56,221 nt of DNA from an uncultured Acidimicrobiaceae bacterium (GTDB lineage Bacteria; Actinomycetota; Acidimicrobiia; Spongiisociales; UBA5794), in the NCBI GenBank assembly GCA_964387145.1, contig CAYLVM010000005.1, positions 1-56,221 on the forward strand, in the 5' to 3' direction. Shown here piece after piece: positions 5,956-56,179 of the stretch. The notes under the pieces are model-generated. The model was not told the DNA's origin. It saw nothing but the letters and a program-made list of their open reading frames with translations, and made no database searches. Within the stretch, counting starts at the first letter, position 1; every line of letters begins with the position of its first letter. The translations under genes were made by a program, and so were the position numbers.

Positions 5956-6003
5956 GAACTTCCGATTGTACGATGGTGGCAATCTCACTGGGGCGGTTCT
6001 GCA

Positions 6004-6396
6004 ATGCGCTTCAACATTCCAGAGTCGGAGCTGCTGTGGCACTTCGACACGTCGGGTGGTCCGGGAGGCCAGCACGCCAACAAGAGCGCGACGCGTGTTG
6101 TGCTCCGGTTCGGTGTTGCTGAGTCGCGGGCTTTCGACGGATCCACGCGGGATCGGATAGTGAACCGCCTCGGGAGTGAGGTTCGCATCGTTGAGGCGGG
6201 TTCGCGGTCCCAGGCTACGAACCGCAAACGTGCTGTGCGTCGGCTTCACGCGATGCTCGAGGAGGCTGCACGGCCACGACCGCCCCACCGCAAGGCAACC
6301 CGTCCTCCAAGAGCGTCACGCCGCCGCCGCCTCGAGGCCAAACGTTCTCGTGGTCTTCTGAAGCGGCAACGTTCGCAACCTTGGGACGATACGTAG
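6004..6396 (+). CDS. arfB: Alternative ribosome-rescue peptidyl-tRNA hydrolase ArfB
   Basis: SGGPGGQHANK (GGQ motif), RSQATNRKRA, and a basic C-terminal tail RRRLEAKRSRGLLKRQR. Confidence 0.93.
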   Translation: MRFNIPESELLWHFDTSGGPGGQHANKSATRVVLRFGVAESRAFDGSTRDRIVNRLGSEVRIVEAGSRSQATNRKRAVRRLHAMLEEAARPRPPHRKATRPPRASRRRRLEAKRSRGLLKRQRSQPWDDT

Positions 6397-22985: not shown

Positions 22986-23075
22986 GGAATCGTTCCTTTC
23001 GTGACCACCCCACGATAGGAACCCTTGGGGCATGTGCAACGCACACATACCCCGTCGAACGCGTACCCTCAGGGT

Positions 23076-25722: not shown

Positions 25723-25802
25723 TGTGTTACAGTATCATAAAGCAGATATTCACTGCGTTACATGACCGACTCCGTGAGAGCACCAGCGAATCGAGGCTGC
25801 AA
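25723..25802. promoter_or_regulatory. Divergent promoter region rpiR / aminomutase operon
   Basis: TACTGT 6 nt before the rpiR ATG on the minus strand, TATCAT (25733-25738) on the plus strand, two GTTACA copies (25726, 25757). Confidence 0.55.
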
Positions 25803-31408: not shown

Positions 31409-32431
31409 GTGATGTCAGGAAACGCAAGCTTCGACCTGCGAGACGCAGCGATCGTCTCGATCGCCCACGTGGACGCTCCTCAGATCGTGACCTCGAGCGA
31501 CATCGACGAACAGCTCGCCGAGACTTATGAGCGTGTCGGTGCCCAACCCGGCCTTCTCGAAAGTCTTGCGGGTATCCGTGAGCGACGCTGGTGGCCTGAA
31601 GGCCATCTCTTCACGGATGCTGCTGCAGCAGCCGGCGCCAAAGCCATAGAGGCAGCCGGCATCCGCTCCGACGACATTGGCCTTCTCATCGACACATCGG
31701 TGTGTCGAGACCGCCTCGAACCGTCATCGGCAGTCACCGTGCACAACGCACTCGACCTGCCAAGCTCATGCATGAGCTTCGACCTCTCCAATGCCTGCCT
31801 CGGTTTCGTCAACGCGCTCCAAGTTACGGGCAACATGATCGACGGAGGCCAGATCGACTACGCGTTGATCGTCGATGGCGAGGGGAGTCGTGGGCTCCAG
31901 GAGAACACGATCGCCCGCCTGGCCGGACCCGACACGACGATGGGGGACCTCTTCGCAGAGTTCGCATCCTTGACGCTTGGATCCGGCGGCGCTGCAGCCG
32001 TAGTCGGACGCCACTCAGACAACCCGGGGAGTCATCGCATCGTCGGTGGCATCGCTCGTGCCGATACGAGCCACCACGACATCTGCGTAGGCGACCTCGA
32101 GGGCATGCGGACCGATACCAAAGCCCTTCTCGACGCTGGTTTGCACGTGTCCAAGCTGGCCTGGGGTGATGCAGACGAGCGGGGATGGCTCGATGCAGAC
32201 CGCTACATCGTGCATCAGGTGTCCCAGGTACACACCGCAATGCTGAACGAACTTCTCGGTCTTGACCCAGCGAAAGTGCCGCTCACGTTCCCAACACTCG
32301 GAAATGTGGGCCCGGCATCGATCCCGATCACGCTCTCGATGGAGTCCGACTCCCTGAGTCCAGGAGACAAGGTACTCCTGATGGGGATCGGATCCGGGAT
32401 CAACGCGTCTGCCATCGAACTGATCTGGTGA
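31409..32431 (+). CDS. oleA: OleA-type thiolase-fold condensing enzyme
   Basis: GIRERRWW, RLEPS (catalytic Glu), FDLSNACLGF (Cys), ASLTLGSGG, HQVS (His), GNVGPASIP (Asn), MGIGSGIN. Confidence 0.9.
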   Translation: MMSGNASFDLRDAAIVSIAHVDAPQIVTSSDIDEQLAETYERVGAQPGLLESLAGIRERRWWPEGHLFTDAAAAAGAKAIEAAGIRSDDIGLLIDTSVCRDRLEPSSAVTVHNALDLPSSCMSFDLSNACLGFVNALQVTGNMIDGGQIDYALIVDGEGSRGLQENTIARLAGPDTTMGDLFAEFASLTLGSGGAAAVVGRHSDNPGSHRIVGGIARADTSHHDICVGDLEGMRTDTKALLDAGLHVSKLAWGDADERGWLDADRYIVHQVSQVHTAMLNELLGLDPAKVPLTFPTLGNVGPASIPITLSMESDSLSPGDKVLLMGIGSGINASAIELIW

Positions 32432-34995
32432 TCCCGGCCGCTCACCGATCGGCGAGCCTGCCACCGTCTGGCCTCGACGGACTCGACCCGACGTGGTCGC
32501 GGTTGATCACGACCCCCGCCCTCGACGGCGTCGGAAGAACCTGGCACGTGCTCGACAACCGGGTCACAGATCCATCGCTGACACTGCTCTGTGTCCATGG
32601 CAACCCCACATGGTCGTACCTGTGGCGTGACCTTCTCGCATCGGCGCCGCCGGGCGTGCGGGTCGTCGCCGTCGATCACCTCGACATGGGGTTCTCCGAG
32701 CGGACAGGAACAACGCGCCGTCTTGCACAGAGGATCGACGATCTCTGCGCGCTCACCGGTGCCCTCGAGATCGATGGCCCCGTCGTGACCGTAGCCCACG
32801 ACTGGGGAGGGCCGATCTCCCTCGGGTGGGCAGAGCGTCACGTGGACCAACTCGCCGGCGTGATCCTGATGAACACGGCAGTGCACCAACCACAGGACGT
32901 CGCTCCACCCGGCCTGATCCGGCTCGTGAGGACGCCCGGCCTCCTCGAGAAGGTCTGTGTCACCTCGCCGATGTTCGTACGTGGGGCAATGGCCCTGTCA
33001 CGTCCCCGTCCGGACAAGGACGTCAGACGCGCCTACGAGGCCCCGTACGGCAACCCGGAGGTGAGGCATGGGATCGCCGGGTTCGTAGAGGACATACCCC
33101 TCGACCCGCATCATCCGACGCGTGCAACGCTCGACGCCGTTGCGAACGGTCTCGAAGGTCTCAAGGATGTCCCGACGCTGCTGCTGTGGGGACCCTCCGA
33201 TCCGGTGTTCTCGGATCGCTACCTTCGCGATCTCGCGAAACGTCTGCCCCAGGCATCGATCCACCGGTTCATTGGAGCAAGCCACATGCTCCCCGAGGAT
33301 GTAGATGTCGCGCCCGTCGTGTACGCGTGGATCGACCGCGACACCGCTATGCCACCCATCGGTGACGGACGAACCCGAGAATCGCTTTGGGCAGCGATCG
33401 AGCGACGATCCAATGACCGAGATCCAGCGGTGGTCGACATGGGCAAGGAGGGTGCCCAACGGTACGTCACGTTCGCCGAGTTGGCCGAAGGAGTCTCGGA
33501 CCTCGCCTCCGGTCTTGCGGCCATAGGCGTCGCCCCCGGTGACCGGATCGCGTTGCTCGTGCCTCCGGGCATCGACCTGGCGCTCTGTCTCTACGGTGCG
33601 TGGAGAGCGGGTGCTGTCGTGGTGCTCGTCGACGCAGGTCTTGGCGTCCGCGGGATCGGGAGGGCACTCAAGAGCGCCAACCCCCAGTATCTCATCGGCA
33701 TCCCAAAGGCCCTGGCTGCTGCCCGCACGATGCGATGGCCCGGTGTCGGTATCTCGACGTCGACCTTGGCAGTATCTCAGGCCCGCGCTCTCGGTGTCAG
33801 GCACTCACTCGACGAGATCCGCAAGCGCGGACGAAGCCACCAGACGCCTGCCGAGGTCGGCGGTGATGCGTACGCGGCGGTTGCGTTCACATCGGGGGCC
33901 ACCGGACCGGCGAAGGGAGTCGTCTACCGACACCGCCAGCTCCAGGCGCAACGCGATGCACTTGTCGACCTTTACGACATCGTTGAGTCCGACCGGCTCG
34001 TTGCCGCGTTTGGCCCATTCGCTCTCTTTGGGCCGGGGATGGGGATCCCGTCTGTCGTCCCGCACATGGACGTGACATCGCCTGGAACGCTCACCGCCAG
34101 TTCGCTCGCAGCGGCGGTTGAAGCGATCGACGCGACCATGGTGTTCGGATCGCCGGCAGCGCTGCGCAACGTCACCGCGACGGCAAGCGACCTGTCCCAC
34201 GATGAGCGCGAGCACCTCGCACGGGTCCGACTGCTGTTGTCGGCCGGTGCACCGGTTCCCGCCGACGTACTCCATGGTGCGGTCGAGGTGATGCCGAACG
34301 CCGAGCCACATACGCCGTACGGCATGACCGAGGTCCTTCCCGTCGCCGACATCTCTCTTTCTCAGATCGATGAGGCAGGCGACGGTTCCGGTGTCTGCGT
34401 CGGACTTCCGGTCCACGGCATCGACGTCGTGATCGATCCGTTCGACCGACAGGGGGTGCCGAAGGGAGCCACGACGACCGATCCCGACGTGGTCGGGGAG
34501 GTCTGCATCAAGGCGCCGCACATGCGCGATGGTTACGACAACCTGTGGTTCGCGCAGCACGCCGCGTCTCAGCCTCCGGGCTGGCACCGAAGTGGCGACG
34601 TCGGGCACTTCGATGCCGAAGGGCGCCTATGGATCGAGGGCAGGATCGTTCACGTCATCTCCACCATGTCGGGGCCTGTTACCCCTATCGGCCTCGAGCA
34701 TGCGATCAACCGACTCGAGGGAGTTGCGCTCTCGGCCATCGTTGGAGTCGGTCCGAAGGGAACGCAGCAGGTCGTGGCAGTCATCGTTCCCGATCCCGGC
34801 ATCCGGCGATCCTCGCTCGCAGGCGAGGGGCTTGCAGACCAGGTGCGCTCGCAGGTCGGAGCCGTTGACGTCGCAGCGGTGCTCGTCGTCCGGTCGCTGC
34901 CGGTCGACAAGCGGCACAACTCCAAGATCGACCGGACGCGCGTTGCTGCCTGGGCCGAGCGCGTGCTCGCCGGTGGGCGGATGGGGAATCCATGA
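32428..34995 (+). CDS. oleBC: OleB-OleC fusion (alpha/beta hydrolase + beta-lactone synthetase)
   Basis: HGNPTWSYLWR and HDWGG (haloalkane-dehalogenase-like OleB), then FTSGATGPAKGV, TPYGMTEVLP, HRSGDVGH and LPVDKRHNSKIDR (OleC). Confidence 0.9.
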   Translation: MIPAAHRSASLPPSGLDGLDPTWSRLITTPALDGVGRTWHVLDNRVTDPSLTLLCVHGNPTWSYLWRDLLASAPPGVRVVAVDHLDMGFSERTGTTRRLAQRIDDLCALTGALEIDGPVVTVAHDWGGPISLGWAERHVDQLAGVILMNTAVHQPQDVAPPGLIRLVRTPGLLEKVCVTSPMFVRGAMALSRPRPDKDVRRAYEAPYGNPEVRHGIAGFVEDIPLDPHHPTRATLDAVANGLEGLKDVPTLLLWGPSDPVFSDRYLRDLAKRLPQASIHRFIGASHMLPEDVDVAPVVYAWIDRDTAMPPIGDGRTRESLWAAIERRSNDRDPAVVDMGKEGAQRYVTFAELAEGVSDLASGLAAIGVAPGDRIALLVPPGIDLALCLYGAWRAGAVVVLVDAGLGVRGIGRALKSANPQYLIGIPKALAAARTMRWPGVGISTSTLAVSQARALGVRHSLDEIRKRGRSHQTPAEVGGDAYAAVAFTSGATGPAKGVVYRHRQLQAQRDALVDLYDIVESDRLVAAFGPFALFGPGMGIPSVVPHMDVTSPGTLTASSLAAAVEAIDATMVFGSPAALRNVTATASDLSHDEREHLARVRLLLSAGAPVPADVLHGAVEVMPNAEPHTPYGMTEVLPVADISLSQIDEAGDGSGVCVGLPVHGIDVVIDPFDRQGVPKGATTTDPDVVGEVCIKAPHMRDGYDNLWFAQHAASQPPGWHRSGDVGHFDAEGRLWIEGRIVHVISTMSGPVTPIGLEHAINRLEGVALSAIVGVGPKGTQQVVAVIVPDPGIRRSSLAGEGLADQVRSQVGAVDVAAVLVVRSLPVDKRHNSKIDRTRVAAWAERVLAGGRMGNP

Positions 34996-35957
34996 GGGTC
35001 CTCGTGACGGGGGCAACCAGCCTCCTCGGCCGCACGGTCACCGAGCATTTGCTCGCCAGAGGTGACGATGTGACGGTGTTCCAACGCCACTCGAGCGATA
35101 TCGACACGCGTGAGATCCTCGGTGATGTCTCCGACAGTGACGTCGTTGCACGGGCGGCGGAAGGTGTCGATGCGGTCGTGCACCTTGCTGCACGGGTCGG
35201 TGTGGTCGGCGTATGGAGACAGTTCGAGAGAACGAACATCATGGGTACGACGAACGTGATCACTGCTGCGCGTAGCGCCGGTGCATCGCGATTCGTTCAC
35301 GTCTCGTCTCCAGCAGTTGCGCACGCTGGAGTGTCACTCATTGGAGCGGGCGCCGGTGCAGCCAACCCGAACAGTGCACGCGGACCGTACGCCCGCAGTA
35401 AAGCGTTCGCCGAGCATGCCGCACTCGCCGCGAACTCCTCCGAGATGTCAGTCGTGGCGGTACGCCCGCACCTCGTATGGGGACCGGGCGACACACAACT
35501 CGTGGGTCGGATCATCGAGCGAGCCAGGCAGGGGAGACTCGCGATCGTCGGTACGGGTGCATCACTCATCGACAGCACCTACGTCGACAACGCCGCTGAT
35601 GCTCTCGTCGCCGCGCTCGACCGGGCAGACACCGTTGGAGGCAGGGCCTTCGTCGTGTCGAATGGCCAACCGAGGCCGGTACGTGAACTCATCAACAGGA
35701 TCGTTCTTGCCGCAGGGTTGGAGCCGCCGAGCATCGCGGTTCCGTACCGTGTCGCACGCGGCGGCGGCCTGGTATTGGAGAAGGTATGGGACCGCACCGA
35801 GCGGACCGATGACCCCCCGATGACGAGTTTCCTCGCAGAACAGCTGGGAACCGCCCACTGGTTCGATCAGCGCGAGACCCGAGAGGCGCTCGGTTGGATT
35901 CCGTCCGTCTCCCTCGACGAGGGGTTCCGGCGGCTGGCAGCCTCCTTCGGGTCGTAG
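34992..35957 (+). CDS. oleD: OleD-type NAD(P)-dependent reductase (extended SDR)
   Basis: VLVTGATSLLG, VHLAA, HVSSP, YARSK, RPHLVWGPGD. Follows oleBC with an ATGA overlap. Confidence 0.88.
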   Translation: MRVLVTGATSLLGRTVTEHLLARGDDVTVFQRHSSDIDTREILGDVSDSDVVARAAEGVDAVVHLAARVGVVGVWRQFERTNIMGTTNVITAARSAGASRFVHVSSPAVAHAGVSLIGAGAGAANPNSARGPYARSKAFAEHAALAANSSEMSVVAVRPHLVWGPGDTQLVGRIIERARQGRLAIVGTGASLIDSTYVDNAADALVAALDRADTVGGRAFVVSNGQPRPVRELINRIVLAAGLEPPSIAVPYRVARGGGLVLEKVWDRTERTDDPPMTSFLAEQLGTAHWFDQRETREALGWIPSVSLDEGFRRLAASFGS

Positions 35958-36731: not shown

Positions 36732-38048
36732 ATGACCGCCCCCTCCGTATGGCTGACGACGCTTGGCTGCTCCAAGAACCAGGTCGACTCCGACAAGATC
36801 TCCTCAGTCCTGGGTGACTCGGGATACGTCGACGCCGATGATCCCGAGACCGCCGACGTCGTGATGGTGAACACGTGTGGGTTCATCGATGCAGCCCGTA
36901 GGGAGTCGATCGAGACGATCCTCGAGCTTGCCGACGCAAAGCGTGACGATGCGAAGCTCGTGGTGATGGGGTGCATGGCGCAACGCTACGAACAGGAACT
37001 CATCGAAGCACTCCCGGAAGCCGATGCGGTGATCGGGCTGTCACGGTACTCCGAACTCGCGGACGAGATCGACACGATGACCGGATGGCACCCGATCCAG
37101 ATCGGTGGCGTGAAACGATCGCACATGGACATCCTCGAGGGCGTTCGGCGACCAACACCCGCAACGCCGTACGCCTACGTGAAGGTTGCGGAAGGATGCA
37201 ACAAGACGTGTGCGTTCTGTGCCATCCCGCTGATCCGCGGCAAGCAACGCTCGAGGGTAGGGGAGGGCATCGTCGCAGAGATCGAGGGGCTCGTTGCCGG
37301 GGGAGTCCAGGAGATCGTCCTCGTCGCACAGGACCTCGCTGCATACGGGAGGGACAACGATGCGGGCTCTATAGAAGATCTCGTGGAGCGAGCGGCGTCT
37401 GTAGAGGGGCTTGCCCGCTTGCGTCTCTACTACCTGTACCCGAAGGAGATCCGGGAAGGTCTCATCGATCTGATGGCGGGTCATAGGACGATCGCCAACT
37501 ACTTCGACCTGTCACTCCAACACTCCTCAGCAACGCTGCTGCGTGCCATGCGCCGGCCCGGGAGCGGCGACGGGCACCGCGACCTCATCGATCGTATCCG
37601 GGTTGCTGCACCCGACGCTGCAACGCGCTCGAGTTTCATCGTCGGCTTCCCAGGTGAAACCGATGACGACGTCGAGGATCTCGCAGGGTTCCTTCGTGAC
37701 GTTCGACTCGACTGGGCAGGGTTCTTCCCCTTTTCACGGGAGGACGGCACGACGGCGGCCACGATGGAGAACCAGGTTCCTGGCAACGTGATCGGCGAGC
37801 GGCTCCGGTACATTCAGAACATCCAGGACGAGATCACCATGGAGAAGAATGCAGCGACGGTCGGATCGACCGTGCGGGTACTCGTCGACCAGGTAGAGGA
37901 TGGCCAGGCGGTCGGCCGATCACATCGCGAGGCTCCCGAGATCGACGGCATGATCCTTCTCGATGACGGGCATCCGGGGGAGTGGGTCAACGCGACGATC
38001 ACGGGTGCCTACGCAACGGACACGACCGCGACCGTGGTCGGCCTGTGA
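36732..38048 (+). CDS. rimO: Ribosomal protein S12 methylthiotransferase
   Basis: LGCSKNQVDS, NTCGFI, GCMAQRY, EGCNKTCAFCAIP, C-terminal TRAM with EAPEIDG. Confidence 0.96.
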   Translation: MTAPSVWLTTLGCSKNQVDSDKISSVLGDSGYVDADDPETADVVMVNTCGFIDAARRESIETILELADAKRDDAKLVVMGCMAQRYEQELIEALPEADAVIGLSRYSELADEIDTMTGWHPIQIGGVKRSHMDILEGVRRPTPATPYAYVKVAEGCNKTCAFCAIPLIRGKQRSRVGEGIVAEIEGLVAGGVQEIVLVAQDLAAYGRDNDAGSIEDLVERAASVEGLARLRLYYLYPKEIREGLIDLMAGHRTIANYFDLSLQHSSATLLRAMRRPGSGDGHRDLIDRIRVAAPDAATRSSFIVGFPGETDDDVEDLAGFLRDVRLDWAGFFPFSREDGTTAATMENQVPGNVIGERLRYIQNIQDEITMEKNAATVGSTVRVLVDQVEDGQAVGRSHREAPEIDGMILLDDGHPGEWVNATITGAYATDTTATVVGL

Positions 38049-39843: not shown

Positions 39844-39999
39844 CCGTCAGGTGATGGGATGGTGCCAGGATCCGGGGGTCGCCCGACGGCAGGGATCGGG
39901 GCCCATATCCTCGTCGAGTCCGGTCCCGCCTAGCATGTGCGCGCTGCGCTCCGGGGAGTGGGCGCTGCTGGGAACGGGTTACTCGCCTGGAGGGACGGG

Positions 40000-42900
40000 A
40001 TGCACACCGAGGCGTTGAGAGCGAATCTCGAGAGAACAGCAGTCGCGGTGGTCATCCCCGATGAGCAACTCGTCCTCCTCGAGATCGCTGCCCCCATGTC
40101 TGGCGTCTATCAGAACACCCGGCAACTCCTCGAAGAGATCAATCACCGCTACGTCGGGTGGGCCGACACCATCTCGGAGCTCCACGGCCGCGCGATGCGC
40201 GACTTCTTCTACTACAACGGCCACGTCGATGGCGTGCACGCGCTCGACGTGTACTGCGACCTCTACGACAAGGCTGTTCGAGAGGCCACGCCGATCCCTC
40301 TGCGCGAGGATGCGATCCGGTGGTGGCTTGCGTATCTCGAGAAGATCGTCACAGATTCTGGAGAGGGACTCGAACGCAACCTCGGTGTCGTGCAGCGATC
40401 GATCGCACGGATCTCGGCCCATATTGCAGACGAACCACACCTCGCAGCCCCCGGCTCGGCGCGCTTGCACCGTCTCGCTGCGTCGCTGCACCACAGCGTG
40501 GGCCCGACAGATGTCACGTGCGCTGAAGCGATGGAGCTGCTGCGTGACGTACTCGACCGCGTCTACGTCCGATGGCTCACTCGGGAGGACCCCGCAATGT
40601 GGTATCTGGATCTCATCGGCCCAGATCAGGGAAACAGCACAATCCCCGACGCCATCTCAGCGCTTTCACACGCAACGCTCACAGCGTATCGACGAGACAT
40701 CGCGGCGATGGACACGTCCGTGCCGGCAATGCCCGATGCCGATCGCCTGCTCGGGTTGCCGGATCACCTCGCGATCACGCGTACGTATCTCTTGGCTGCC
40801 GACGAGATCGACCGTCGCGAGGGAACGGCCGACGGATCGGTACACAACCGGGCTCTGTGGCTGTGCTATCTGCTCGGCGAAGAGTTGCTGGCACCCATCC
40901 ATGAGAAGGCGCTCTGGGCGCTTGCCCGCATCAGTCGTGCACTCGTTGCCGACGCTGCGGACGAGACGTTCGAACACTTCGTCGAGGAGGTGTTCACGAC
41001 GCTGCGCGCCGGCGACGACGGCTTCGCATCGGGAGCCCTCGATTTCGTGAGAAGTCTCGGCATGTCAACGATCGATGGCACCCGCCAGGACAGGATCGAC
41101 CTGGTCATGGACGAGATTCTCACGCTGGAGTTCCACCGGCCTGAGTTCGCCGGGTTCACCGACGAGTGGGGTATACGGGTGAACCCCAATCACCTCAAGA
41201 ACATCCGCACGTATCTCGGGATCATCGATACCGATCCATGGCGAGCGCGCCACCTGCTTGCAGGCCTGCTCATCCACCTCGAGACGGGAGGCGTGTTCAT
41301 CGCCGACACCGACCTGTTTCAAAAGGACGTCTCGGAGTTGTTGTCCGCCGACATCGCCCCGGTGTACGACCAGGTGATCCATCTCCTTCGTCGGTTCCCC
41401 GTCTACTTCAACGACATAGGAGCGGAGGGCCAGTTGCGGGCCGTGTCCACCCGCCTCGACGAGATCGATGCTCGTCAGGATCCGATCTGTCACTTCCTGA
41501 GGAAGCAGAGTCACGTCGAGAGCAACCCGATGCTCGTCCCGATCGTTGAACAGGTCGGCGCGTTCTGGGCAAGCGGGGACGGTTCCGTCCTTGCGAAGTA
41601 CCTTCCCGAGGAGGCACACGGAGACCTCGACGTCGAGACGGACCGGTACCTTGGCCTTCACAGCGTCTTTTCTCGCCTCGTGGAGTCGGCTGGCCCGATC
41701 GAGAGACTGTTCCAGATGCCGGTATCGGACGTCCAAGCGCTCGTTGAGGACATGACACAAGAGACGGAACACGACAGGGAGAAGGCGATCCTGCTGTTCC
41801 GCCTTCGCTTCGAACTGGCCCGCAAGTACACGCTGAGCCACGCCGACCTGATGGAACGGTTGATTGCATTTCACGGCGTGTCGACGAGAGTCGTGCGCGG
41901 CATCGAATCCCACATCGATCAAGGAAGGTACCTCCCAGCGATCGACGTGCTCCTTACGATCATGGAAGATCTGAAGCGCCAGGTACTCGACCGCAGACCA
42001 ACACAAGCATCCGAGGAGATCTACCGAAAGCGACACATCGGAACCGGCATACCGTCGATGTACGGGCGCTATCGGGAGGAGAAGCTCGAAGCCGTGGGGC
42101 TCTCCTTTCGGATCGCCTCGCTCGTAGGTGCCCTCCTGGACCGGATGCTTGCAGCCCAGGGATTCGAGACACTCGATGGTGACGCCCTCGCCGATGCAGG
42201 CGACCTGTTGCGGCTGCTCCAGCGGGCGTTGCGCGTCGAAGGGTACGAATCCTGGAATCTCGAGACGACGCTATCGATGTTCGATGAGGCCATCGTCACC
42301 GGAGGCGTAGCTCGCGAAGAGTTCGCAGACATCGTTCGAGCGATCTCGAAGGCAGTGCAGTCGATCGTCCAGGAACGCCTGTTCGAGGGGTATAGCGAGG
42401 TCTTCGGCATCATCGGGCGGCAACTCGCCATCGAGGGCTCCGGCTCAGACGCGGAGCGCGAGAAGGTCGTGATCAGAGCGTACGAGACGTTCCTGCGCAC
42501 CTTGATCGGTGAGAGCCTGGCACTTCAGCGTGTCGACAACATCACGGCACGCCTCCTCGAAGCACTTTCGGATGACACGAAGCCATGGTCGGTCGACGTG
42601 TCCCGTTCGCTGCCGTCCGCTGAATCGGTGGATCTCGTCCCGCTGTCGGGTGGTGACCGATCCAAGGGACGGATATCCCTCGGCAACAAGGGGTTCATGC
42701 TGACACGCCTCGCCGGTTTCGGCTTCCCGATACCACCCGGATTCATCATCACAACCGACCTCTCTCGCAACGCGATCGGGAGGAAGCTCGAAACGATCCC
42801 CGACGAGTTGTTCGACAGGGTCGTTGCGCGAATCGGTGTTCTCGAAGCCGGTGCCCGCGGCCGCTTCGGCGATGAGGACCGCCCGCTGCTGCTCTCTGTA

Positions 42901-44175
42901 CGTGGAGGTGCACCGTTGAGTATGCCCGGCATGCTCGATTCGTTCCTCAACGTGGGCATCAACCCCGACATCGTCGAGGGGTTCGCCTCGACGTCGGGAA
43001 GTCCGTGGGCTGCGTGGGACGCGTATCGCCGCTTCCTGCAGTTCTGGGGGATGAGCCAGGGACTCGATCGAGATCTGTTCGACGATGCTATGTCGGGAGC
43101 CAAGGAAGAGTCCGGTGTTCCGAAGAAGGCGTTCCTGTCGGTACCAAGGATGCGACAACTTGCCTTCGAGTACCGTGCGTTGCTTGCCGACCATGATGTT
43201 CCCGTTGTCGACGAGCCGTTCGCTCAGCTTCGTCGCTGTATCGGCCTCGTTGTCGACTCGTGGAACTCCTCGATGGCGACGATGTATCGCGAGGAGATGG
43301 GGATCTCCCATGGATGGGGCACTGCGGTGATCATCCAGCGAATGGTGTACGGCAATCTCAGTCCCCAGTCGGGTACGGGGGTCGCTCTGGTTCGACGGAG
43401 CGGTTCGAACGGATCGGTCGAGATTGCAGGGGATTATGTGTCTTACGGCCAGGGAGACGACGTCGTCAGCGGCCTCGTCGAGACGTTCCCCGTCAGCAAC
43501 GCACAGCGTACGGACCCGAGGTTGCACACGTTCCGCTCCCTCGAGCGGGACCGCCCTCCCATCTACGCTGAGCTTGCACATCTCGGGCGATCCCTCCTCA
43601 TCGAGTATCGGCTCCCCGACCAGGAGCTCGAGTTCACGTTCGAATCGGAGAGCCCTGCGGATCTCCACGTTCTCCAGGCACGAGAGGCGATCCGTGAACC
43701 CCTCGACGTCGTTGCGACCTTCGTCCAGACCGAGGAGTTGCAGGCGTCGCGAATCGGTGTTGGGATCGGTGTCGGCGGGGGAGCAGGGTGCTACCGCGTC
43801 GCGTTGGATCAGGATGACATCGATCGTCTCAGGAGGGAGCACCCGGACGATCAGATACTGCTCGTCCGGCCCGATACGGTTCCCGACGATATCGAGCTGC
43901 TCATCAACGCAGACGCGCTCCTCACCGCGCTCGGCGGTGCGACGAGCCACGCCGCTGTGGTCGCAAGAACCCTCGGGCGGACGTGCGTCGTGGGATGTCG
44001 CGCCCTACGTGTCTTCGAGCAGGAAGGGTTGGTCGAGATAGGCGGCACAACGCTGCATCCGGGCGATATCGTTTCGGTCAGTGGAGTCGATGGCTCCGTG
44101 TTCGTCGGCAGACAAGCCGTCGAGCTCGCCGAGCACCCACACTGGGTCACCATGGAGATCGGATCACACGAATGA
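40000..44175 (+). CDS. Large PPDK-like dikinase: unknown N-terminal region + ATP-grasp + phospho-His swivel, no PEP-binding barrel
   Basis: LGNKG, PIPPGFII, LLSVRGGAPLSMPGMLD, QRMVYGN, SGTGV, QGDDVVSGL, GGATSHAAVVAR (His codon 43948-43950). The protein ends about 75 aa later. GGAGG RBS before ATG 40000. Confidence 0.85.
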   Translation: MHTEALRANLERTAVAVVIPDEQLVLLEIAAPMSGVYQNTRQLLEEINHRYVGWADTISELHGRAMRDFFYYNGHVDGVHALDVYCDLYDKAVREATPIPLREDAIRWWLAYLEKIVTDSGEGLERNLGVVQRSIARISAHIADEPHLAAPGSARLHRLAASLHHSVGPTDVTCAEAMELLRDVLDRVYVRWLTREDPAMWYLDLIGPDQGNSTIPDAISALSHATLTAYRRDIAAMDTSVPAMPDADRLLGLPDHLAITRTYLLAADEIDRREGTADGSVHNRALWLCYLLGEELLAPIHEKALWALARISRALVADAADETFEHFVEEVFTTLRAGDDGFASGALDFVRSLGMSTIDGTRQDRIDLVMDEILTLEFHRPEFAGFTDEWGIRVNPNHLKNIRTYLGIIDTDPWRARHLLAGLLIHLETGGVFIADTDLFQKDVSELLSADIAPVYDQVIHLLRRFPVYFNDIGAEGQLRAVSTRLDEIDARQDPICHFLRKQSHVESNPMLVPIVEQVGAFWASGDGSVLAKYLPEEAHGDLDVETDRYLGLHSVFSRLVESAGPIERLFQMPVSDVQALVEDMTQETEHDREKAILLFRLRFELARKYTLSHADLMERLIAFHGVSTRVVRGIESHIDQGRYLPAIDVLLTIMEDLKRQVLDRRPTQASEEIYRKRHIGTGIPSMYGRYREEKLEAVGLSFRIASLVGALLDRMLAAQGFETLDGDALADAGDLLRLLQRALRVEGYESWNLETTLSMFDEAIVTGGVAREEFADIVRAISKAVQSIVQERLFEGYSEVFGIIGRQLAIEGSGSDAEREKVVIRAYETFLRTLIGESLALQRVDNITARLLEALSDDTKPWSVDVSRSLPSAESVDLVPLSGGDRSKGRISLGNKGFMLTRLAGFGFPIPPGFIITTDLSRNAIGRKLETIPDELFDRVVARIGVLEAGARGRFGDEDRPLLLSVRGGAPLSMPGMLDSFLNVGINPDIVEGFASTSGSPWAAWDAYRRFLQFWGMSQGLDRDLFDDAMSGAKEESGVPKKAFLSVPRMRQLAFEYRALLADHDVPVVDEPFAQLRRCIGLVVDSWNSSMATMYREEMGISHGWGTAVIIQRMVYGNLSPQSGTGVALVRRSGSNGSVEIAGDYVSYGQGDDVVSGLVETFPVSNAQRTDPRLHTFRSLERDRPPIYAELAHLGRSLLIEYRLPDQELEFTFESESPADLHVLQAREAIREPLDVVATFVQTEELQASRIGVGIGVGGGAGCYRVALDQDDIDRLRREHPDDQILLVRPDTVPDDIELLINADALLTALGGATSHAAVVARTLGRTCVVGCRALRVFEQEGLVEIGGTTLHPGDIVSVSGVDGSVFVGRQAVELAEHPHWVTMEIGSHE

Positions 44176-45440
44176 ACGCTCAAGGAACACGCAGCGACTG
44201 TCTCGGGATCAACGGTCTCGGCCGAATCGGGAAGTTGACGCTTTGGCACCACGTTGCCCGCCGTCACTTCCCCGGCATCGTCGTCAACGTTGGGAGGGAT
44301 GTCGGGCAGGGGATCGAAGCGGTGTGCGGTGCGATCGAACGTGACTCCACCTATGGGGCGATGCATCGCTTCCTCTTCGGCGTCAACGCGGATCCATGTG
44401 TAAGGATCGTCGATGCCGAACGGGGTCTCCTCGACGTTGCCGGTGTGCCAGTCACTGTGCTGCGCGAAGCACGCAACCCGAGGGACATCGATTGGAAGCA
44501 GCACGATGTACGGGTCGTCGTCGACACGACCGGGGTCTTCAACGATCCGACGCGTATCGCCGACGACCCCAAGGGTGCGCTCCGTGGGCACCTCGCAGCC
44601 GGTGCCGAGAAGGTGATCAACAGCGCAGCATTCAAGATCCGTGACGGTGGCCTGTCGATACCCGACGACGCGGTGACGTTGATCGCGGGTATCAACCAGG
44701 ATGTGTTCGACCCGGCACGACACAACCTCATCTCTGCTGCCTCGTGCACGACGACCGCAGTGGCGCACATGCTCAAGCCGTTGCTCGATGCGCTCGGTGC
44801 GTCGAGCATCATGACCGCTGCGATGAGCACCGTGCACGCAGCGACCAACACGCAGCAGGTGCTCGACACGGTCCCTGCCGCAGGTTCTCGAGATCTGCGG
44901 AAGAACCGGAGTGTTCTCAACAGCATCATCCTGACCTCGACGAACGCCACTGCTGCGCTCGAGCAGGTGATGCCAGAGATACGCCAGATCGGCTTCATGG
45001 CTGACTCGGTGCGGGTTCCCGTGCAAACAGGATCGCTGGCGATCCTGAACCTGACCTTCCAATCGACGGTCAACGAGGACGATGAGTCCAGCGTGACGCG
45101 AGAAGTCTTGAACGGCATCTACGCCGACGCCGCTCAAGGCGCCCAGCGGGGACACCTCGTCTACAGCGAGGAGCAGAACGTGCCCGCTGACTTCGTGGGA
45201 TCCCGAGCAGCGGTCGTGCTCGAGGGGAACGAGACGCACACCCGTACCGGGTTCTCCGTCGTGGATCTGACAACGCTTCCGGGGATCAGCGATTCGATCA
45301 TCGACGCACTGCACGAGACGAGCATCAGTGTTCCGGTGACACATGCCAAGCTCTTCGGCTGGTACGACAACGAGTTCGGGAGCTACACGAACATGCTCGG
45401 GGACCTCACGGTCCACGTGCACGAGAGTCTCGACGCATAG
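44172..45440 (+). CDS. Divergent GAPDH-family dehydrogenase (422 aa)
   Basis: GINGLGRIG, DTTGVF, SAASCTTT (catalytic Cys), STVHA, RVPV, WYDNEFG. ATGA overlap with the dikinase. Confidence 0.9.
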   Translation: MNAQGTRSDCLGINGLGRIGKLTLWHHVARRHFPGIVVNVGRDVGQGIEAVCGAIERDSTYGAMHRFLFGVNADPCVRIVDAERGLLDVAGVPVTVLREARNPRDIDWKQHDVRVVVDTTGVFNDPTRIADDPKGALRGHLAAGAEKVINSAAFKIRDGGLSIPDDAVTLIAGINQDVFDPARHNLISAASCTTTAVAHMLKPLLDALGASSIMTAAMSTVHAATNTQQVLDTVPAAGSRDLRKNRSVLNSIILTSTNATAALEQVMPEIRQIGFMADSVRVPVQTGSLAILNLTFQSTVNEDDESSVTREVLNGIYADAAQGAQRGHLVYSEEQNVPADFVGSRAAVVLEGNETHTRTGFSVVDLTTLPGISDSIIDALHETSISVPVTHAKLFGWYDNEFGSYTNMLGDLTVHVHESLDA

Positions 45441-46894: not shown

Positions 46895-47072
46895 TACTAT
46901 CGGGGAATAATCACACACACCGATATTGAAAACAACTCTGAAGCGTGAACGAACCAATGCAAGACACGAGATAACCAGCCGATAGGCGACCAACTCGAAT
47001 ACGTCTGTGTGTGTGCCGAGCCCGGCGTGGCTCGGCACGTTCGTATCCGCATCGGGGGGAACGAGGAACGAG
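46895..47072 (+). promoter_or_regulatory. rny promoter (-10 TACTAT) and structured 5' leader
   Basis: TACTAT at 46895-46900. CACACACAC (46912-20) is complementary to GTGTGTGTG (47007-15). A 10-bp hairpin spans 47013-47038. Confidence 0.5.
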
Positions 47073-48599
47073 ATGGAACAGATCACCAGCCTGTTGGTAC
47101 CGGGGTTGGTCGTAGCGGGCGTGTTCCTTGCAGGGCTCCTGGTGGGTCGGCGCATCGTCAAGCAGCCGCCCGCTCCCGAAGAGATACTGGCTGATGCTCG
47201 TATGGAGGCACAGAGGATCCTCGCGAGGGCAGATGAAGAGGCTCGGGCCAAGGCCGAGGTCTACCGCGATAGAGAAGAGGCAACCCTCGAGCACCGTCTG
47301 GTGGAGGTCGGCTCCAAGGAGGGTCGCATCGCCCAGCGTGCTGCAACGCTCGAACAACGCGCTGCGAACCTCGCACAGCGCGAGGAACTCGTCATCGACA
47401 AGGAACGCGAAGCGATGGCGCTTTCGATCGAGGCAGCCAAGCTCCAGGAGGAGGCGTTGCTGGAGTTGGAGGCCCTTGCAGGCTTCGACTCGAGGGCGGC
47501 CAAGGAGGAGTTGCTGCAAAAGGTACAGGATGAGGCCAGGCGAGACGCGATGGTCCTGGTTCGCGACATGGAGACGAAGGCGCGTGAGGAGGGCGATCGA
47601 CGCTCCCGTCGGATCCTGGCCACCGTGATCCAGCGCATCGCCTCCGATGTGGTCTCCGATACGACGATCTCGACGGTGACGCTTCCCTCAGACGATATGA
47701 AGGGTCGGATCATCGGGAGAGACGGGCGGAACATCCGCACCTTCGAGGCGGTCACCGGTGTCGACCTCATCGTCGACGACACTCCGGAGAGCGTTTCGGT
47801 ATCGACGTTCGATCCGGTCAGGCGAGAGGTCGCCCGTCGTGCACTGGTCCGTCTTGTCGAGGATGGCCGTATCCATCCAACATCTATAGAAGAGGCGTAC
47901 GAAAAGGCGAAGGACGAGGTCGAGCAGTCGATTCGCGATGCCGGGGAGTGGGCGATGCTCGAGGTCGGCCTCACCAGGCTTCACCCCGAGCTCACGACAC
48001 TGGTCGGCCGCCTTCGGTACCGCTCGAGCTACGGACAGAACGTGCTGGACCACCTGGTGGAGACCGCGCACATCGCGGGGATGCTTGCTGCCGAGCTCGG
48101 CGTCGACGAGGCCGAGGCCAAGCGAGCGGCGTTCCTCCATGACATCGGCAAGGCCGTCAGCCACGAGGTCGGTGGATCCCACGCGTTGATCGGCGCAGAG
48201 ATAGCGAGGCGTTTCGGTGAGGATGCAGGCATCGTGCATGCGATCGAGGCTCATCACAACGAGGTAGAGCCACGTACGCTGACGGCAGTGCTCGTCCAGG
48301 CAGCAGATGCAGTGTCTGCAGCGCGGCCAGGCGCTCGCAGAGAGGCCCTCGAATCCTACGTGCGTCGTCTCGAGCGTCTCGAGGAGATCGCTCAGGGCTT
48401 CGACGGTGTGGAGAAGGTGTTCGCTCTCCAAGCGGGCCGAGAGGTTCGCGTCGTTGTCGATCCAGGTTCACTCGACGACACCGGCTCCAAGGATCTTGCA
48501 CGGCGCATCGCTCGCAAGCTGGAAGACGATCTCCAGTACCCCGGCCAGATCGAAATCACGGTCATCCGTGAGTACCGGGCGAAGGACTACGCGCGGTAG
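47073..48599 (+). CDS. rny: Ribonuclease Y
   Basis: N-terminal TM, coiled coil, KH domain MKGRIIGRDGRNIR, HD domain RSSYGQNVL...FLHDIGK...HHNE...ADAVSAARPGAR. Confidence 0.97.
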   Translation: MEQITSLLVPGLVVAGVFLAGLLVGRRIVKQPPAPEEILADARMEAQRILARADEEARAKAEVYRDREEATLEHRLVEVGSKEGRIAQRAATLEQRAANLAQREELVIDKEREAMALSIEAAKLQEEALLELEALAGFDSRAAKEELLQKVQDEARRDAMVLVRDMETKAREEGDRRSRRILATVIQRIASDVVSDTTISTVTLPSDDMKGRIIGRDGRNIRTFEAVTGVDLIVDDTPESVSVSTFDPVRREVARRALVRLVEDGRIHPTSIEEAYEKAKDEVEQSIRDAGEWAMLEVGLTRLHPELTTLVGRLRYRSSYGQNVLDHLVETAHIAGMLAAELGVDEAEAKRAAFLHDIGKAVSHEVGGSHALIGAEIARRFGEDAGIVHAIEAHHNEVEPRTLTAVLVQAADAVSAARPGARREALESYVRRLERLEEIAQGFDGVEKVFALQAGREVRVVVDPGSLDDTGSKDLARRIARKLEDDLQYPGQIEITVIREYRAKDYAR

Positions 48600-48673: not shown

Positions 48674-50062
48674 ATGCCTGAGATCACCATGCTCGACATG
48701 CCAGGGCTCAAAGCGGTCCGTACGCCAACGCGCGTCGGACGACGGTACTTCGTGCGTACCTTTGGATGTCAAATGAACGAACACGACTCCGAGCGGATAG
48801 CCGGCCTGCTCGAGGCCGATGGAATGATCCGCACGGAGACGATCGACGATGCTGATCTCATCGTGCTCAACACCTGCACGATACGCGAGAACGCCGACAC
48901 GAAACTCTATGGGTACCTTGGATCCTTGAAGCGGGCCAAGACCGAGAACCCGGATCTCAAGATCGCCGTTGGGGGCTGCTCTGCCCAGAAGGAACGGGAC
49001 CTCATCCATGAACGCGCAGGGTGGGTCGATGTCGTGTTCGGCACCCACAACGTGCACAGAGTCGTCGATCTGCTCGACCACGCCGACGAGTGGGGACCCA
49101 TCACCGAGATCTGGGATGAGACCAGATCGGGGAGTGACATCCCGAGTGGGCTTCCCGTTCATCGTGAGACCGAACACTCGGCGTGGGTAACGGTGACGAT
49201 CGGCTGCAACAACTCGTGTACGTTCTGCATAGTTCCGATCGTGCGTGGTCCCGAGATATCGCGTCGCCCCGGCGACATCATCAGGGAGATCGAGTCGCTC
49301 GCGGCAGAAGGGGTCACAGAGATCACGCTGCTCGGCCAGAACGTCAACTCCTATGGGCGGGATCTCGACCTCAATGGACGGAGCCCGTTGTTCGCGGATC
49401 TGCTGCGACGGGTAGGGTCTGTCGAAGGTGTCGAGCGTATCCGCTACACGAGCCCCCACCCGAAGGACTTTCGGGAGGATGTCGCTGTTGCGATGGCAGA
49501 GACCCCCGCCGTGTGTGAGCAGATCCACTTCCCCCTGCAGTCTGGCTCTGATCGCATCCTGGCCGCGATGCATCGTGGGTACAGCGCACAGCGCTTCCTC
49601 GAGAAGCTCGAGATGATGCGCTCGATCGTGCCGAACCTCGCCGCGTCGACGGATGTCATCGTCGGCTTCCCTGGAGAAGCAGAGCAAGACTTCGCTGCAA
49701 CGCTCGAGGTCATGGAAGCTGCTCGTTTCGACAACGCGTTCATGTTCCAGTTCTCGCCGCGCCCGGGAACACCCGCAGCTGAGATGGGCGGCCGGGTCTC
49801 ACGAGATGTCGTCCAGGAGCGTTTTGACAGGCTGGTCGAGCTTCAGAGTCGGATCACCTACGAGCAGAACCTTGCACAAGTTGGTCGTATCGAAGAGGTG
49901 ATGGTCGAAGGACCATCGAAGCGGGACGAGACCGTTGTGACGTCCCGGACCCGGGGCAACCGGATCGTCCACATCCCCGGACAGTGGCCGGCAGGATCGC
50001 TTCTTCGTGTGCGTATCACGAGGGCTGCACCCCACTACCTCGAAGGAGCGTTGTCGTCCTGA
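48674..50062 (+). CDS. miaB: tRNA 2-methylthio-N6-isopentenyladenosine synthase
   Basis: TFGCQMNEHDSE, NTCTIRE, GCNNSCTFCIVP, LLGQNVNSYG, HFPLQSGS, TRAM domain. Confidence 0.97.
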   Translation: MPEITMLDMPGLKAVRTPTRVGRRYFVRTFGCQMNEHDSERIAGLLEADGMIRTETIDDADLIVLNTCTIRENADTKLYGYLGSLKRAKTENPDLKIAVGGCSAQKERDLIHERAGWVDVVFGTHNVHRVVDLLDHADEWGPITEIWDETRSGSDIPSGLPVHRETEHSAWVTVTIGCNNSCTFCIVPIVRGPEISRRPGDIIREIESLAAEGVTEITLLGQNVNSYGRDLDLNGRSPLFADLLRRVGSVEGVERIRYTSPHPKDFREDVAVAMAETPAVCEQIHFPLQSGSDRILAAMHRGYSAQRFLEKLEMMRSIVPNLAASTDVIVGFPGEAEQDFAATLEVMEAARFDNAFMFQFSPRPGTPAAEMGGRVSRDVVQERFDRLVELQSRITYEQNLAQVGRIEEVMVEGPSKRDETVVTSRTRGNRIVHIPGQWPAGSLLRVRITRAAPHYLEGALSS

Positions 50063-55075: not shown

Positions 55076-55921
55076 TCATGGCTTCCGATCTTCCTTACGG
55101 AGCCTGACGATGGCGTCATTGAACTCTGCACCGAGGATGACCGACAGCGACGAGATCCAGAACCACAGCAGCAGGATCACGGCTGCTCCGAGTACTCCGT
55201 AGGTGGCGTTGTACTTTCCGTAGGACGATACGTACACGGAGAAGCCGATGGATGCGCCCGACCACAGAACCGTTGCGAGAACCGCACCGGGCAGGACGTC
55301 TCTCCAGCCGTCGGGACGCAGCGGAGGGGCGTAGCGGTACAGCAGTCCGATGACCAGAACTGCCCCGCCGGCGATCGCCACCCACCTGGTGTTGCCGATC
55401 GTGACGATCGCATCGGTTGGGTCGAAGCGTTGGAGCACGACGGGCACGACGGCGATCATCGCGAGGACGAGAACCCCGCCACCGATCACGAGGAAAGTGA
55501 GGCCGATCGCTACGGCTCTCGACTCGAGGATGGATCGGTGCTCCTCCTGGTCGTACGCGATCTTGACCGCTCCGATCATCGCTCTCGTGGCGTTCGACAC
55601 GGTCCAGAGAAACGCTGTGATCGAGAGGGCGAACCCGACGCTGAGTCCGGCACTGGATCCCGAAGCAATGGATGAAAGTTGGGCTGTGAGGAGGGCAGCG
55701 GACTCCGCAGGGAGGACAGCGAGGAGCCCGTCGATCTGTTGCTCGGCGTCTGCAACGTTGGCGAAGAGTCCATAGAGCGTGATCGCAATGAACATGGCGG
55801 GCAGCAGTGCAAGGACCGCGTAGAAGGCGACACCGGCGGCGATGATGACGGCGTGGTCGCTGCGCGCCTCACGCCTCACATCGTTGCCGATGGCTAGCCA
55901 GTATCGGAGCCGGTCTTGCAC
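55076..55921 (-). CDS. YihY/BrkB-family membrane protein
   Basis: AAGVAFYAVLALLP, LYRYAP, VLPGAVLA, YNATYGVLGAAVILLLWFW, ILGAEFN. Start placed at GTG 55921 (uncertain). Confidence 0.88.
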   Translation of the reverse strand: MQDRLRYWLAIGNDVRREARSDHAVIIAAGVAFYAVLALLPAMFIAITLYGLFANVADAEQQIDGLLAVLPAESAALLTAQLSSIASGSSAGLSVGFALSITAFLWTVSNATRAMIGAVKIAYDQEEHRSILESRAVAIGLTFLVIGGGVLVLAMIAVVPVVLQRFDPTDAIVTIGNTRWVAIAGGAVLVIGLLYRYAPPLRPDGWRDVLPGAVLATVLWSGASIGFSVYVSSYGKYNATYGVLGAAVILLLWFWISSLSVILGAEFNDAIVRLRKEDRKP

Positions 55922-56055
55922 TGCTGTCTCGCTGAACGTCGGGTATCGGAAGGTACCGCCTTGGAGCGGCTGTGTCACCGAGATGTGGCATCGTTGGGCC
56001 GATGACGGCAGCGAGCGGCGTGCCGCCCCGGGGGTAGAAACGATCAGCCTCGTGG

Positions 56056-56061
56056 TACCAT
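56056..56061 (+). promoter_or_regulatory. Extended -10 element of the tRNA operon
   Basis: TGG-TACCAT, 9 nt upstream of tRNA-Gly. Confidence 0.55.
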
Positions 56062-56070
56062 CCAGTGCAC

Positions 56071-56143
56071 GCGGACGTAGCTCAGCTGGTAGAGCGCAAC
56101 CTTGCCAAGGTTGAGGTCGCCGGTTCGAACCCGGTCGTCCGCT
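56071..56143 (+). tRNA. tRNA-Gly(GCC)
   Basis: Acceptor stem GCGGACG/CGTCCGC, D-arm AGCTCAGCTGGTAGAGC, anticodon loop CTTGCCAA, T-arm GGTTCGAACCC. CCA is not fully encoded (CCG). Confidence 0.97.
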
Positions 56144-56151
56144 CCGATGAG

Positions 56152-56170
56152 GGCGGTCCGTGCGACCGCC
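56152..56170 (+). other. Inter-tRNA spacer hairpin
   Basis: GGCGGTC-cgtgc-GACCGCC, extendable with ATGA/TCAT. Confidence 0.5.
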
Positions 56171-56179
56171 TTTCATTAT

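Follow-up and report, generated by a model that had tools for sequence, protein, structure and literature searches.

A giant PPDK-like dikinase and a GAPDH paralogue form a widely conserved gene pair in bacteria

The genes of a giant dikinase and of a paralogue of glyceraldehyde-3-phosphate dehydrogenase (GAPDH) stand side by side in distantly related bacteria and constitute a widely conserved, unstudied two-gene unit. We describe the pair from a 56,221-nucleotide stretch of DNA of an uncultured Acidimicrobiaceae bacterium (contig CAYLVM010000005.1 of assembly GCA_964387145.1; hereafter the window, with positions counted from its first letter), in which the dikinase gene occupies positions 40000-44175 of the forward strand and encodes 1391 amino acids. 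By its conserved domains and motifs, the dikinase is a genuine three-module phosphotransferase of the 'swivelling histidine' class, to which pyruvate phosphate dikinase (PPDK), phosphoenolpyruvate (PEP) synthase (PEPS) and rifampin phosphotransferase (Rph) belong. Sequence and gene neighbourhood suggest that the pair stands for a step, or a point of control, in triose-phosphate metabolism that has yet to be described.

Modules of the giant dikinase

The mechanically predicted open reading frame (ORF) of the dikinase extends from 39937 to 44175. The ATG at 40000 was taken as the likely start, because a Shine-Dalgarno-like GGAGG read from the sequence precedes it by 6 nt (39989-39993, + strand); the gene ends with the stop codon TGA at 44173-44175. 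Pfam detects PPDK_N (aa 941-1161) and the PEP-utilizers mobile domain (aa 1286-1364) in the translated product and nothing else, and both families (PF01326 and PF00391) score above their gathering thresholds in the window protein and in 33 of 33 other members. The PPDK model TIGR01828 aligns from aa 891 (nt ~42670) over positions 15-346 of its 865, with 336.8 bits against a cutoff of 843.45. This match and the alignment to PPDK delimit a PPDK-type ATP-grasp nucleotide-binding domain at aa ~891-1240 (42670-43719, + strand), in agreement with an earlier reading of the letters alone (the sequence-only reading), which had placed the onset of the ATP-grasp motifs near 42680. The C-terminal 511 residues align to the PPDK of Clostridium symbiosum (1KBL/9PZL) with a whole-sequence E=1.1e-71. 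Within this alignment, the ATP-grasp domain corresponds to PPDK residues 16-339 (domain E=1.7e-50) and keeps the motifs LGNKG, SVRGGA, LEFTFE and LQAR.

The ATP-grasp domain is followed by a phospho-His swivel (PEP-utilizers mobile) domain at aa ~1252-1364 (43753-44091, + strand; PF00391 E=1.7e-16), which matches PPDK residues 392-509. The predicted phospho-carrier, His1317, lies in the sequence GGATSH, is encoded at 43948-43950 (+ strand) and is at least 97% conserved among 60 diverse representatives of the family; T1315-S1316-H1317 is intact and the motif GGATSHAAVVAR is present, as the sequence-only reading had noted at 43948. The alignment recovers equivalents of all seven catalytic residues of PPDK (K22, R92, E323, Q335, R337, T453 and H455), which bears out the earlier description of a PPDK-like dikinase module, and the catalytic residues of both domains are conserved across the family. 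Among the NCBIfam models, the second-best match is NF004531, which represents the VadK type (E=2.3e-82, 277.3 bits against a cutoff of 456). The rifamycin phosphotransferase model NF041857 reaches 25.8 bits against a cutoff of 999 and matches the His domain alone.

The protein terminates 74 aa past His1317. All of the approximately 90 full-length homologues with the phospho-His motif likewise have their C-termini 66-100 aa past the motif, and the PEP/pyruvate TIM barrel (PF02896) has no match in the window dikinase or in the 33 homologues. The early stop and the missing C-terminal barrel were thus read correctly from the single sequence, and the spread of C-termini among the homologues identifies the absence of the barrel as a trait of the family and not an artefact of truncation.

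The remaining 890 residues (aa 1-890; 40000-42669, + strand) form the proposed acceptor or partner-binding domain. The region resists assignment by any of the sequence searches: phmmer with aa 1-887 against the Protein Data Bank (PDB) gave no match at E<=10, Pfam gave none over this domain at E<=1 in 33 diverse members, and NCBIfam gave none over that of the window dikinase. A family profile built from 96 sequences found PPDK, PEPS and EI in the PDB through the C-terminal part and nothing through the N-terminal domain. AlphaFold2 (AF2) modelling of residues 1-900 from the 96-sequence alignment yielded a confident model (pLDDT 90.0, pTM 0.86) of about 40 helices with one beta-hairpin at 671-692 and no beta/alpha barrel; the conserved core, residues 363-870 (508 aa), modelled on its own, reached pLDDT 93.5 and pTM 0.92. 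In Foldseek searches of the PDB, the 900-aa model matched generic helical-solenoid noise only (TM 0.08-0.18, root-mean-square deviation ~30 A), and the core model gave nothing significant (best E=0.024, TM<0.25). By these models and searches, the N-terminal domain is without detectable structural relative or known family, and the sequence-only description of a helical region that cannot be assigned by eye holds at the level of predicted structure.

Conservation within the N-terminal domain is concentrated in two blocks. The most conserved spans aa 389-510 (41164-41529, + strand) and contains W390, H398, D436 in a DTD loop, R480, D487, D494, R501, K502 and H505. The second, at aa 660-720 (41977-42159, + strand), comprises the beta-hairpin with K677, R678, H679, P685, S686 and G689, followed by R704. 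The mean column identity in both blocks is 0.64-0.77, the level of the ATP-grasp and His motifs. Across the 60 representatives, which include a remote branch of 27-28% identity, 24 positions of the domain are at least 97% invariant; these include all nine residues named for the first block, K677, R678, H679, S686 and G689 of the second, and also K609, Y610, R833 and D846. About 18 of the near-invariant residues of the domain are charged or polar, and Arg, Lys, His and Asp dominate the set. Such a composition leads us to expect a phosphoryl-transfer or anion-binding site in place of a passive scaffold, and we infer that the domain houses a catalytic acceptor site.

The GAPDH paralogue and the distribution of the pair

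The GAPDH paralogue is encoded immediately downstream of the dikinase (44172-45440, + strand; 422 aa; Gp_dh_N and Gp_dh_C domains). The two genes share an ATGA overlap (44172-44175, + strand), in which the dikinase stop codon TGA (44173-44175) overlaps the initiating ATG of the paralogue (44172-44174), and a GGAGA lies 13 nt upstream of the overlap (44154-44158, + strand). The overlap indicates translational coupling of the two genes in the window. The paralogue scores 283 bits on the type I GAPDH model TIGR01534, below its cutoff of 367.2, and matches Thermus GAPDH with E=6.9e-36.

We aligned 69 orthologues of the paralogue with four canonical GAPDHs from related loci. All 69 subfamily members have the catalytic dyad Cys192/His222 (C149/H176 of GAPDH) and the GINGLGRIG motif. 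The same is true of T179, R231, S148, T150, T208 and two flanking Arg residues of the S-loop, while R195 is represented by Lys or Arg. Most residues of the Ps and Pi phosphate sites and the WYDNE motif are kept. The subfamily differs from canonical GAPDH by seven insertions of its own, one of which, about 40 aa long, precedes the WYDNE motif, and by five residues that are invariant in this subfamily only: W25, H199, K202, H356 and R358. His356 and Arg358 lie within the ~40-aa insertion and are present in every orthologue. At aa 39-45, a hydrophobic residue occupies the position of the NAD-specifying D32, an invariant Gly-Arg comes next, and Glu or Asp stands three residues later; two aligners disagree over this region, which leaves the preference for NAD or NADP ambiguous. 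The hydrophobic D32 position with the following Gly-Arg, together with His356 and Arg358, could mark NADP preference and a new contact with a substrate or partner. The retained residues mark the paralogue as a working aldehyde dehydrogenase of the phosphorylating type, in a subfamily of its own, and neither as a pseudo-enzyme nor as the housekeeping GAPDH. The invariance of the catalytic and phosphate-site residues makes acyl-phosphate chemistry on a phosphorylated C3-type substrate plausible for it.

Adjacency of the two genes persists over large evolutionary distances. In five of five distant contigs, which include one with a hemerythrin-fused member of the Myxococcota type and one with a member from Caulobacteraceae, a GAPDH-like gene of 414-426 aa directly follows the dikinase, and all other neighbours differ. 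In the wider set of 87 loci, the GAPDH-like gene lies immediately downstream on the same strand in 36, and immediately downstream in convergent orientation in 32 (Smithella/Syntrophales and relatives); it is cut by the contig end in three and is absent within at least 1.7 kb in four (L022, L039, L068 and L075), and 12 loci are too short to judge. Of the 75 informative loci, which span several phyla, 71 (95%) thus have the paralogue beside the dikinase, and this gives strong backing to the functional tie with the GAPDH homologue proposed by the sequence-only reading. Of the two proteins the GAPDH partner is the better conserved, with 50-70% identity to the window copy, against 28-41% for the N-terminal domains of the dikinases. 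Clustering of the ORFs from 88 loci revealed no third conserved partner gene; it recovered only tpi, pgk and gap in Syntrophales and lineage-specific synteny such as miaA and mutL, and glycolytic genes are the sole further neighbours that recur.

In loci from metagenome-assembled genomes of Syntrophales and Deltaproteobacteria, the pair lies within or beside a canonical gap-pgk-tpiA operon, in four different gene orders, and each locus has two GAPDH paralogues, one of them canonical. The arrangement gap-pgk-[GAPDH-like] facing the dikinase, followed by tpiA, is found in two loci (L065:4993-13957 and L045:5106-14569). In L028:1960-10699, gap-pgk-tpi-[GAPDH-like] converges on the dikinase; in L021:4735-14553, a canonical gap gene lies directly upstream of the dikinase; and in L016:5950-13836, the GAPDH-like gene is divergent from gap-pgk. 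This association ties the module, as far as gene order can tell, to triose-phosphate metabolism. The presence of canonical GAPDH and phosphoglycerate kinase (PGK) in the same loci implies that the module supplements the canonical enzymes and does not replace them. A cluster of small ORFs was also noticed near tpiA in four of the gap-pgk-tpiA loci; their position and the look of their sequence prompted a guess that they might encode SecG, but the L065 member has no Pfam match.

The N-terminal domain as a query retrieved 499 proteins, and essentially all complete ones measure 1360-1550 aa and end in PPDK_N and PEP-utilizers domains. A phmmer search over 1.84 billion representatives returned 412 clusters at 50% identity, of which 141 reached E<=1e-30, and among the 150 matches listed the domain occurs in no other architecture, all being fragments or proteins of the same layout, with full-length ones of 1335-1540 aa. 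At least 596 GTDB species carry the dikinase, as counted on contigs from one genome per species. The 80 loci kept from these species come from Thermoleophilia, Acidobacteriota including Aminicenantales, Gemmatimonadota, Eisenbacteria, Riflebacteria, Nitrospirae and Desulfobacterota, the last with many members (Smithella, Syntrophaceae, Syntrophorhabdus, Desulfobacterales and Desulfatiglans); the protein search adds Acidimicrobiia, Myxococcota and Caulobacteraceae. All named members derive from metagenome-assembled genomes. Databases label the proteins 'hypothetical', 'PEP-utilizing enzyme' or 'pyruvate phosphate dikinase', and the last of these labels is wrong. Full-text literature searches found no paper on the family, the only relevant precedents being VadK and Rph.

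Two groups have N-terminal extensions of their own. A hemerythrin domain (PF01814) occupies about 150 extra residues at the very N-terminus in approximately a quarter of the listed homologues; these proteins, of 1530-1550 aa, belong to Myxococcota and Deltaproteobacteria (a subset of P0017-P0080, for example L002:8001-12620). The fusion suggests that oxygen, NO or iron might control the dikinase in this subclade. Another locus has a separate hemerythrin gene (L001:14575-15000) two genes away from the dikinase, with a gene for a Crp/FNR regulator and molybdopterin oxidoreductase genes nearby. The remote branch with 27-28% identity (P0252, P0253 and P0263-P0265; 1450-1480 aa) has its own N-terminal extension of about 100 aa with the motif ICxLDYLxGTLATAYKG.

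Proposed function and competing explanations

The reading we favour, to which we assign about an even chance of being right, is that of a dikinase with a novel acceptor that acts together with the GAPDH paralogue encoded beside it. ATP would be bound by the ATP-grasp domain (aa ~891-1240), and its beta-phosphate transferred to His1317 in the mobile domain at the C-terminus. The gamma-phosphate would pass to inorganic phosphate (Pi) or to water; the formation of pyrophosphate (PPi) is our leaning guess, because the ATP-grasp domain is of the PPDK lineage. The tethered His domain would then swing to a second site, located on the all-alpha N-terminal domain of 890 aa. That domain would take the place of the PEP/pyruvate barrel of PPDK as acceptor domain, at the N-terminus instead of the C-terminus. 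Sequence conservation offers the near-invariant H398, D436, R480, D487, D494, R501, K502, H505, K609, Y610, K677, R678, H679, S686, R833 and D846 as candidates for this site. In the hemerythrin-fused subclade of Myxococcota and Deltaproteobacteria, the additional N-terminal domain would probably gate the enzyme according to oxygen, NO or iron status.

The acceptor would, on this reading, be a triose-level metabolite that the dikinase has in common with the paralogue; the acyl-phosphate machinery of the paralogue and the clustering with gap, pgk and tpiA make the interconversion of 3-phosphoglycerate (3-PG) and 1,3-bisphosphoglycerate (1,3-BPG) the most economical specific proposal. The dikinase would catalyse ATP + 3-PG (+Pi) <-> AMP + 1,3-BPG (+PPi), an AMP-forming route parallel to PGK in the way that PPDK and PEPS are parallel to pyruvate kinase. 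The dedicated GAPDH would receive the labile acyl phosphate from the dikinase or supply it, in the overall sequence 3-PG <-> 1,3-BPG <-> glyceraldehyde-3-phosphate. The phospho-His of swivelling-His enzymes has a transfer potential above that of an acyl phosphate, and histidines are phosphorylated by 1,3-BPG, as in enzymes of the phosphoglycerate-mutase type; either direction of the reaction is therefore chemically reasonable. In the gluconeogenic direction the route might provide a step with a stronger driving force, and in the glycolytic direction one that conserves PPi, such as PPDK provides in PPi-dependent glycolysis. We put forward this full scheme, an AMP/PPi-linked bypass of PGK with an acceptor domain of new fold and channelling to a dedicated GAPDH, as a tentative proposal that is considerably more likely to fail than to hold in its specifics.

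Several observations weigh against the proposed role. The assignment of the acceptor is based only on the gene neighbourhood and on the residues kept in the partner, and 890 aa is very large for a domain that binds a C3 acid. About half of the loci have the two genes convergent rather than co-transcribed, and four lack the partner nearby. Where canonical GAPDH and PGK are encoded in the same loci, the need for a bypass is not obvious. The hemerythrin fusion would suit a regulatory kinase equally well, and so would the VadK precedent. The sequencing runs in which the sequence is present are metagenomes of vents, sediments and mats, and none was identified as RNA.

The main rival is a VadK-like regulatory autokinase, which we consider possible, with a clear minority share of the probability; the sequence-only reading, too, had allowed for either a dikinase with an unknown acceptor or a His-phosphorelay or PTS-like regulator. 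Here the ATP-grasp/His module would only autophosphorylate, without a small-molecule acceptor; the helical N-terminal domain would be a docking scaffold for the GAPDH paralogue and perhaps for other triose-phosphate enzymes, and the phosphorylation state, gated by hemerythrin in some lineages, would switch the activity or assembly of the partner. VadK (Rv1127c) of Mycobacterium tuberculosis derives from PPDK but lacks the PEP/pyruvate domain; it phosphorylates itself on the corresponding His and controls enzymes of the methylcitrate cycle by binding them directly (PMC13400623), and the VadK-type model is the runner-up among the NCBIfam matches to the C-terminal half of the dikinase. The Foldseek matches are solenoid-like only, and such folds often serve protein binding; N-terminal hemerythrin fusions are typical of signalling proteins; and the coexistence of the pair with canonical gap and pgk suits a regulatory layer. 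However, the score on the VadK-type model is far under the cutoff, so that the dikinase is not a VadK orthologue, and VadK works without an extra domain. Some 24 near-invariant residues, conserved like the ATP site across phyla, would be unusual for a pure docking surface, and the fully intact active site of the partner fits metabolic coupling. We hold it improbable that the acceptor is unrelated to triose phosphates (a xenobiotic or antibiotic, as for Rph, a polymer, as for glucan-water dikinase, or some other metabolite) and the GAPDH paralogue only loosely linked, for example through sensing of redox state or NAD. Dikinases are known to swap acceptor domains, as in Rph, and the surrounding genes vary widely; the N-terminal domain resembles no known substrate-binding domain and so does not pin the acceptor down. 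Yet the 95% adjacency with one GAPDH subfamily and the repeated placement at gap-pgk-tpiA would be hard to explain if the two genes were unrelated, the window shows no resistance, mobile-element or defence context, PADLOC finding no matches, and the Rph model scores a small fraction of its cutoff.

Two further explanations would deny the novelty of the protein itself, and both carry next to no weight. The database label 'pyruvate, phosphate dikinase' of many members might invite the view of an ordinary PPDK or PEP synthase in which the PEP/pyruvate barrel has been circularly permuted to the N-terminus. A fold of this kind, which the sequence-only reading had named as the finding that would overturn its interpretation, is ruled out by the AF2 secondary structure and by Foldseek: models with pLDDT 90-93.5 consist of ~40 helices and a single hairpin. 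PF02896 is equally absent from the 33 members, the profile search of the PDB hits PPDK and PEPS over the C-terminal half only, and the score on TIGR01828 is under half of the cutoff. An artefact of assembly or gene calling, whether a frameshift fusion of two genes or a pseudogene, would have in its favour the unusual length only. It is contradicted by the recurrence of an uninterrupted ORF of 1335-1550 aa, with a conserved domain boundary region, in hundreds of independent assemblies, and the sequence of the source contig itself is present in several independent metagenome runs.

The lower part of glycolysis and gluconeogenesis, at GAPDH and PGK, is usually regarded as fully mapped in bacteria, and the pair is found in at least 596 species of Actinomycetota, Acidobacteriota, Desulfobacterota/Syntrophales, Myxococcota, Gemmatimonadota and others. 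If the dikinase is an enzyme of metabolism, it would add a new reaction, and possibly a new mode of AMP/PPi energy coupling, at the triose-phosphate node, with consequences for metabolic models of low-energy anaerobes and uncultured lineages. A 3-PG dikinase in particular would be the lower-glycolysis counterpart of what PPDK and PEPS are to pyruvate kinase, in hundreds of mostly uncultured species, and would in some of them be gated by oxygen or iron through hemerythrin. If the dikinase is a regulator, the newly described VadK principle of PPDK-derived autokinases controlling metabolic enzymes would extend well beyond mycobacteria. Under either reading a systematic mis-annotation is corrected and a new protein fold is there to be solved.

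Genomic surroundings and relation to known systems

In the window, cinA-thpR and recA border the pair, and the wider setting is an ordinary set of actinobacterial housekeeping genes (RNase J, ftsK, recA, RNase Y, miaB and miaA); the intergenic spacers on the two sides of the pair measure 156 and 245 bp. Around the pair, searches gave no Rfam match and no convincing promoter or terminator, and the PADLOC defence-system models match neither the dikinase nor the GAPDH paralogue. Genes for MiaB/RimO-type radical-SAM methylthiotransferases flank the region on both sides (36732-38048 and 48674-50062, + strand), and the window encodes both RNase J (16893-18899) and RNase Y (47007-48599).

Farther from the pair, the 855-aa product of a gene at 32428-34995 (+ strand) joins an alpha/beta-hydrolase domain to an AMP-binding (adenylate-forming) enzyme; a gene of the NAD-dependent epimerase/dehydratase family follows (34992-35957). 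A second fusion protein, encoded at 23025-24845 (+ strand), combines a chorismate-binding enzyme and a class IV aminotransferase (PabB-PabC-like); its mechanical ORF overlaps the 5' end of a convergent acyl-CoA-synthetase-like ORF (21372-23351, - strand), so that one of the two starts is probably shorter. Long ORFs of 848 and 518 aa at 3739-6285 (- strand) and 25701-27254 (+ strand) have no Pfam match at E<=1e-5 and may be uncharacterised proteins or mechanical ORFs in high-GC DNA. The sole Rfam and ARAGORN match in the window is tRNA-Gly(GCC) at 56071-56145 (+ strand). The mechanical ORF at 55076-56176 (- strand) overlaps this tRNA, and its true start is therefore internal.

Set beside characterised systems, the dikinase has the two sequence features, ATP-grasp and mobile His domain, that mark the superfamily of PEP-utilizer dikinases, and it does not qualify as a PPDK, a VadK or an Rph. 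With PPDK (EC 2.7.9.1, for example that of C. symbiosum, 1KBL) it has in common homologous ATP-grasp and phospho-His domains and the T-S-H motif. It differs in lacking the C-terminal PEP/pyruvate TIM barrel, so that the His domain is C-terminal and held by a single tether, in having 890 extra N-terminal residues, and in falling well short of the PPDK equivalog cutoff. VadK, like the dikinase, has ATP-grasp and His domains of PPDK origin and lacks the PEP/pyruvate domain. It is, however, a protein of ~490 aa with no added domain (~490-534 aa for the NF004531 type), against 1391 aa with a conserved 890-aa N-terminal domain, and its targets are the methylcitrate-cycle enzymes, whereas the dikinase has a dedicated GAPDH paralogue for a neighbour.

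Rph reportedly combines an ATP-grasp domain with a phospho-His swivel domain on a C-terminal tether and with a separate domain that binds the acceptor. The dikinase would share this three-part logic with Rph, glucan-water dikinase, phenylphosphate synthase and kinases of the HpeHI/MarK type. The order of the parts differs: acceptor, ATP-grasp and His in the dikinase, if the proposed acceptor role is right, against ATP-grasp, RIF-binding and His in Rph. Similarity between the two proteins is confined to the His domain (E~4e-9), and the N-terminal domain of the dikinase is unrelated to the acceptor domains of the acceptor-swapped dikinases. The partner, for its part, shares the Rossmann and catalytic domains and the Cys/His dyad with type I GAPDH (TIGR01534), of which paralogue pairs such as GapA/GapB of Bacillus subtilis are known; at 422 aa against ~330 aa, with its seven insertions, a score below the cutoff and a canonical GAPDH encoded in the same loci, it stands apart from that type. 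What is new on this known dikinase chassis is a proposed acceptor or partner domain without known fold, combined with an obligate GAPDH-paralogue partner.

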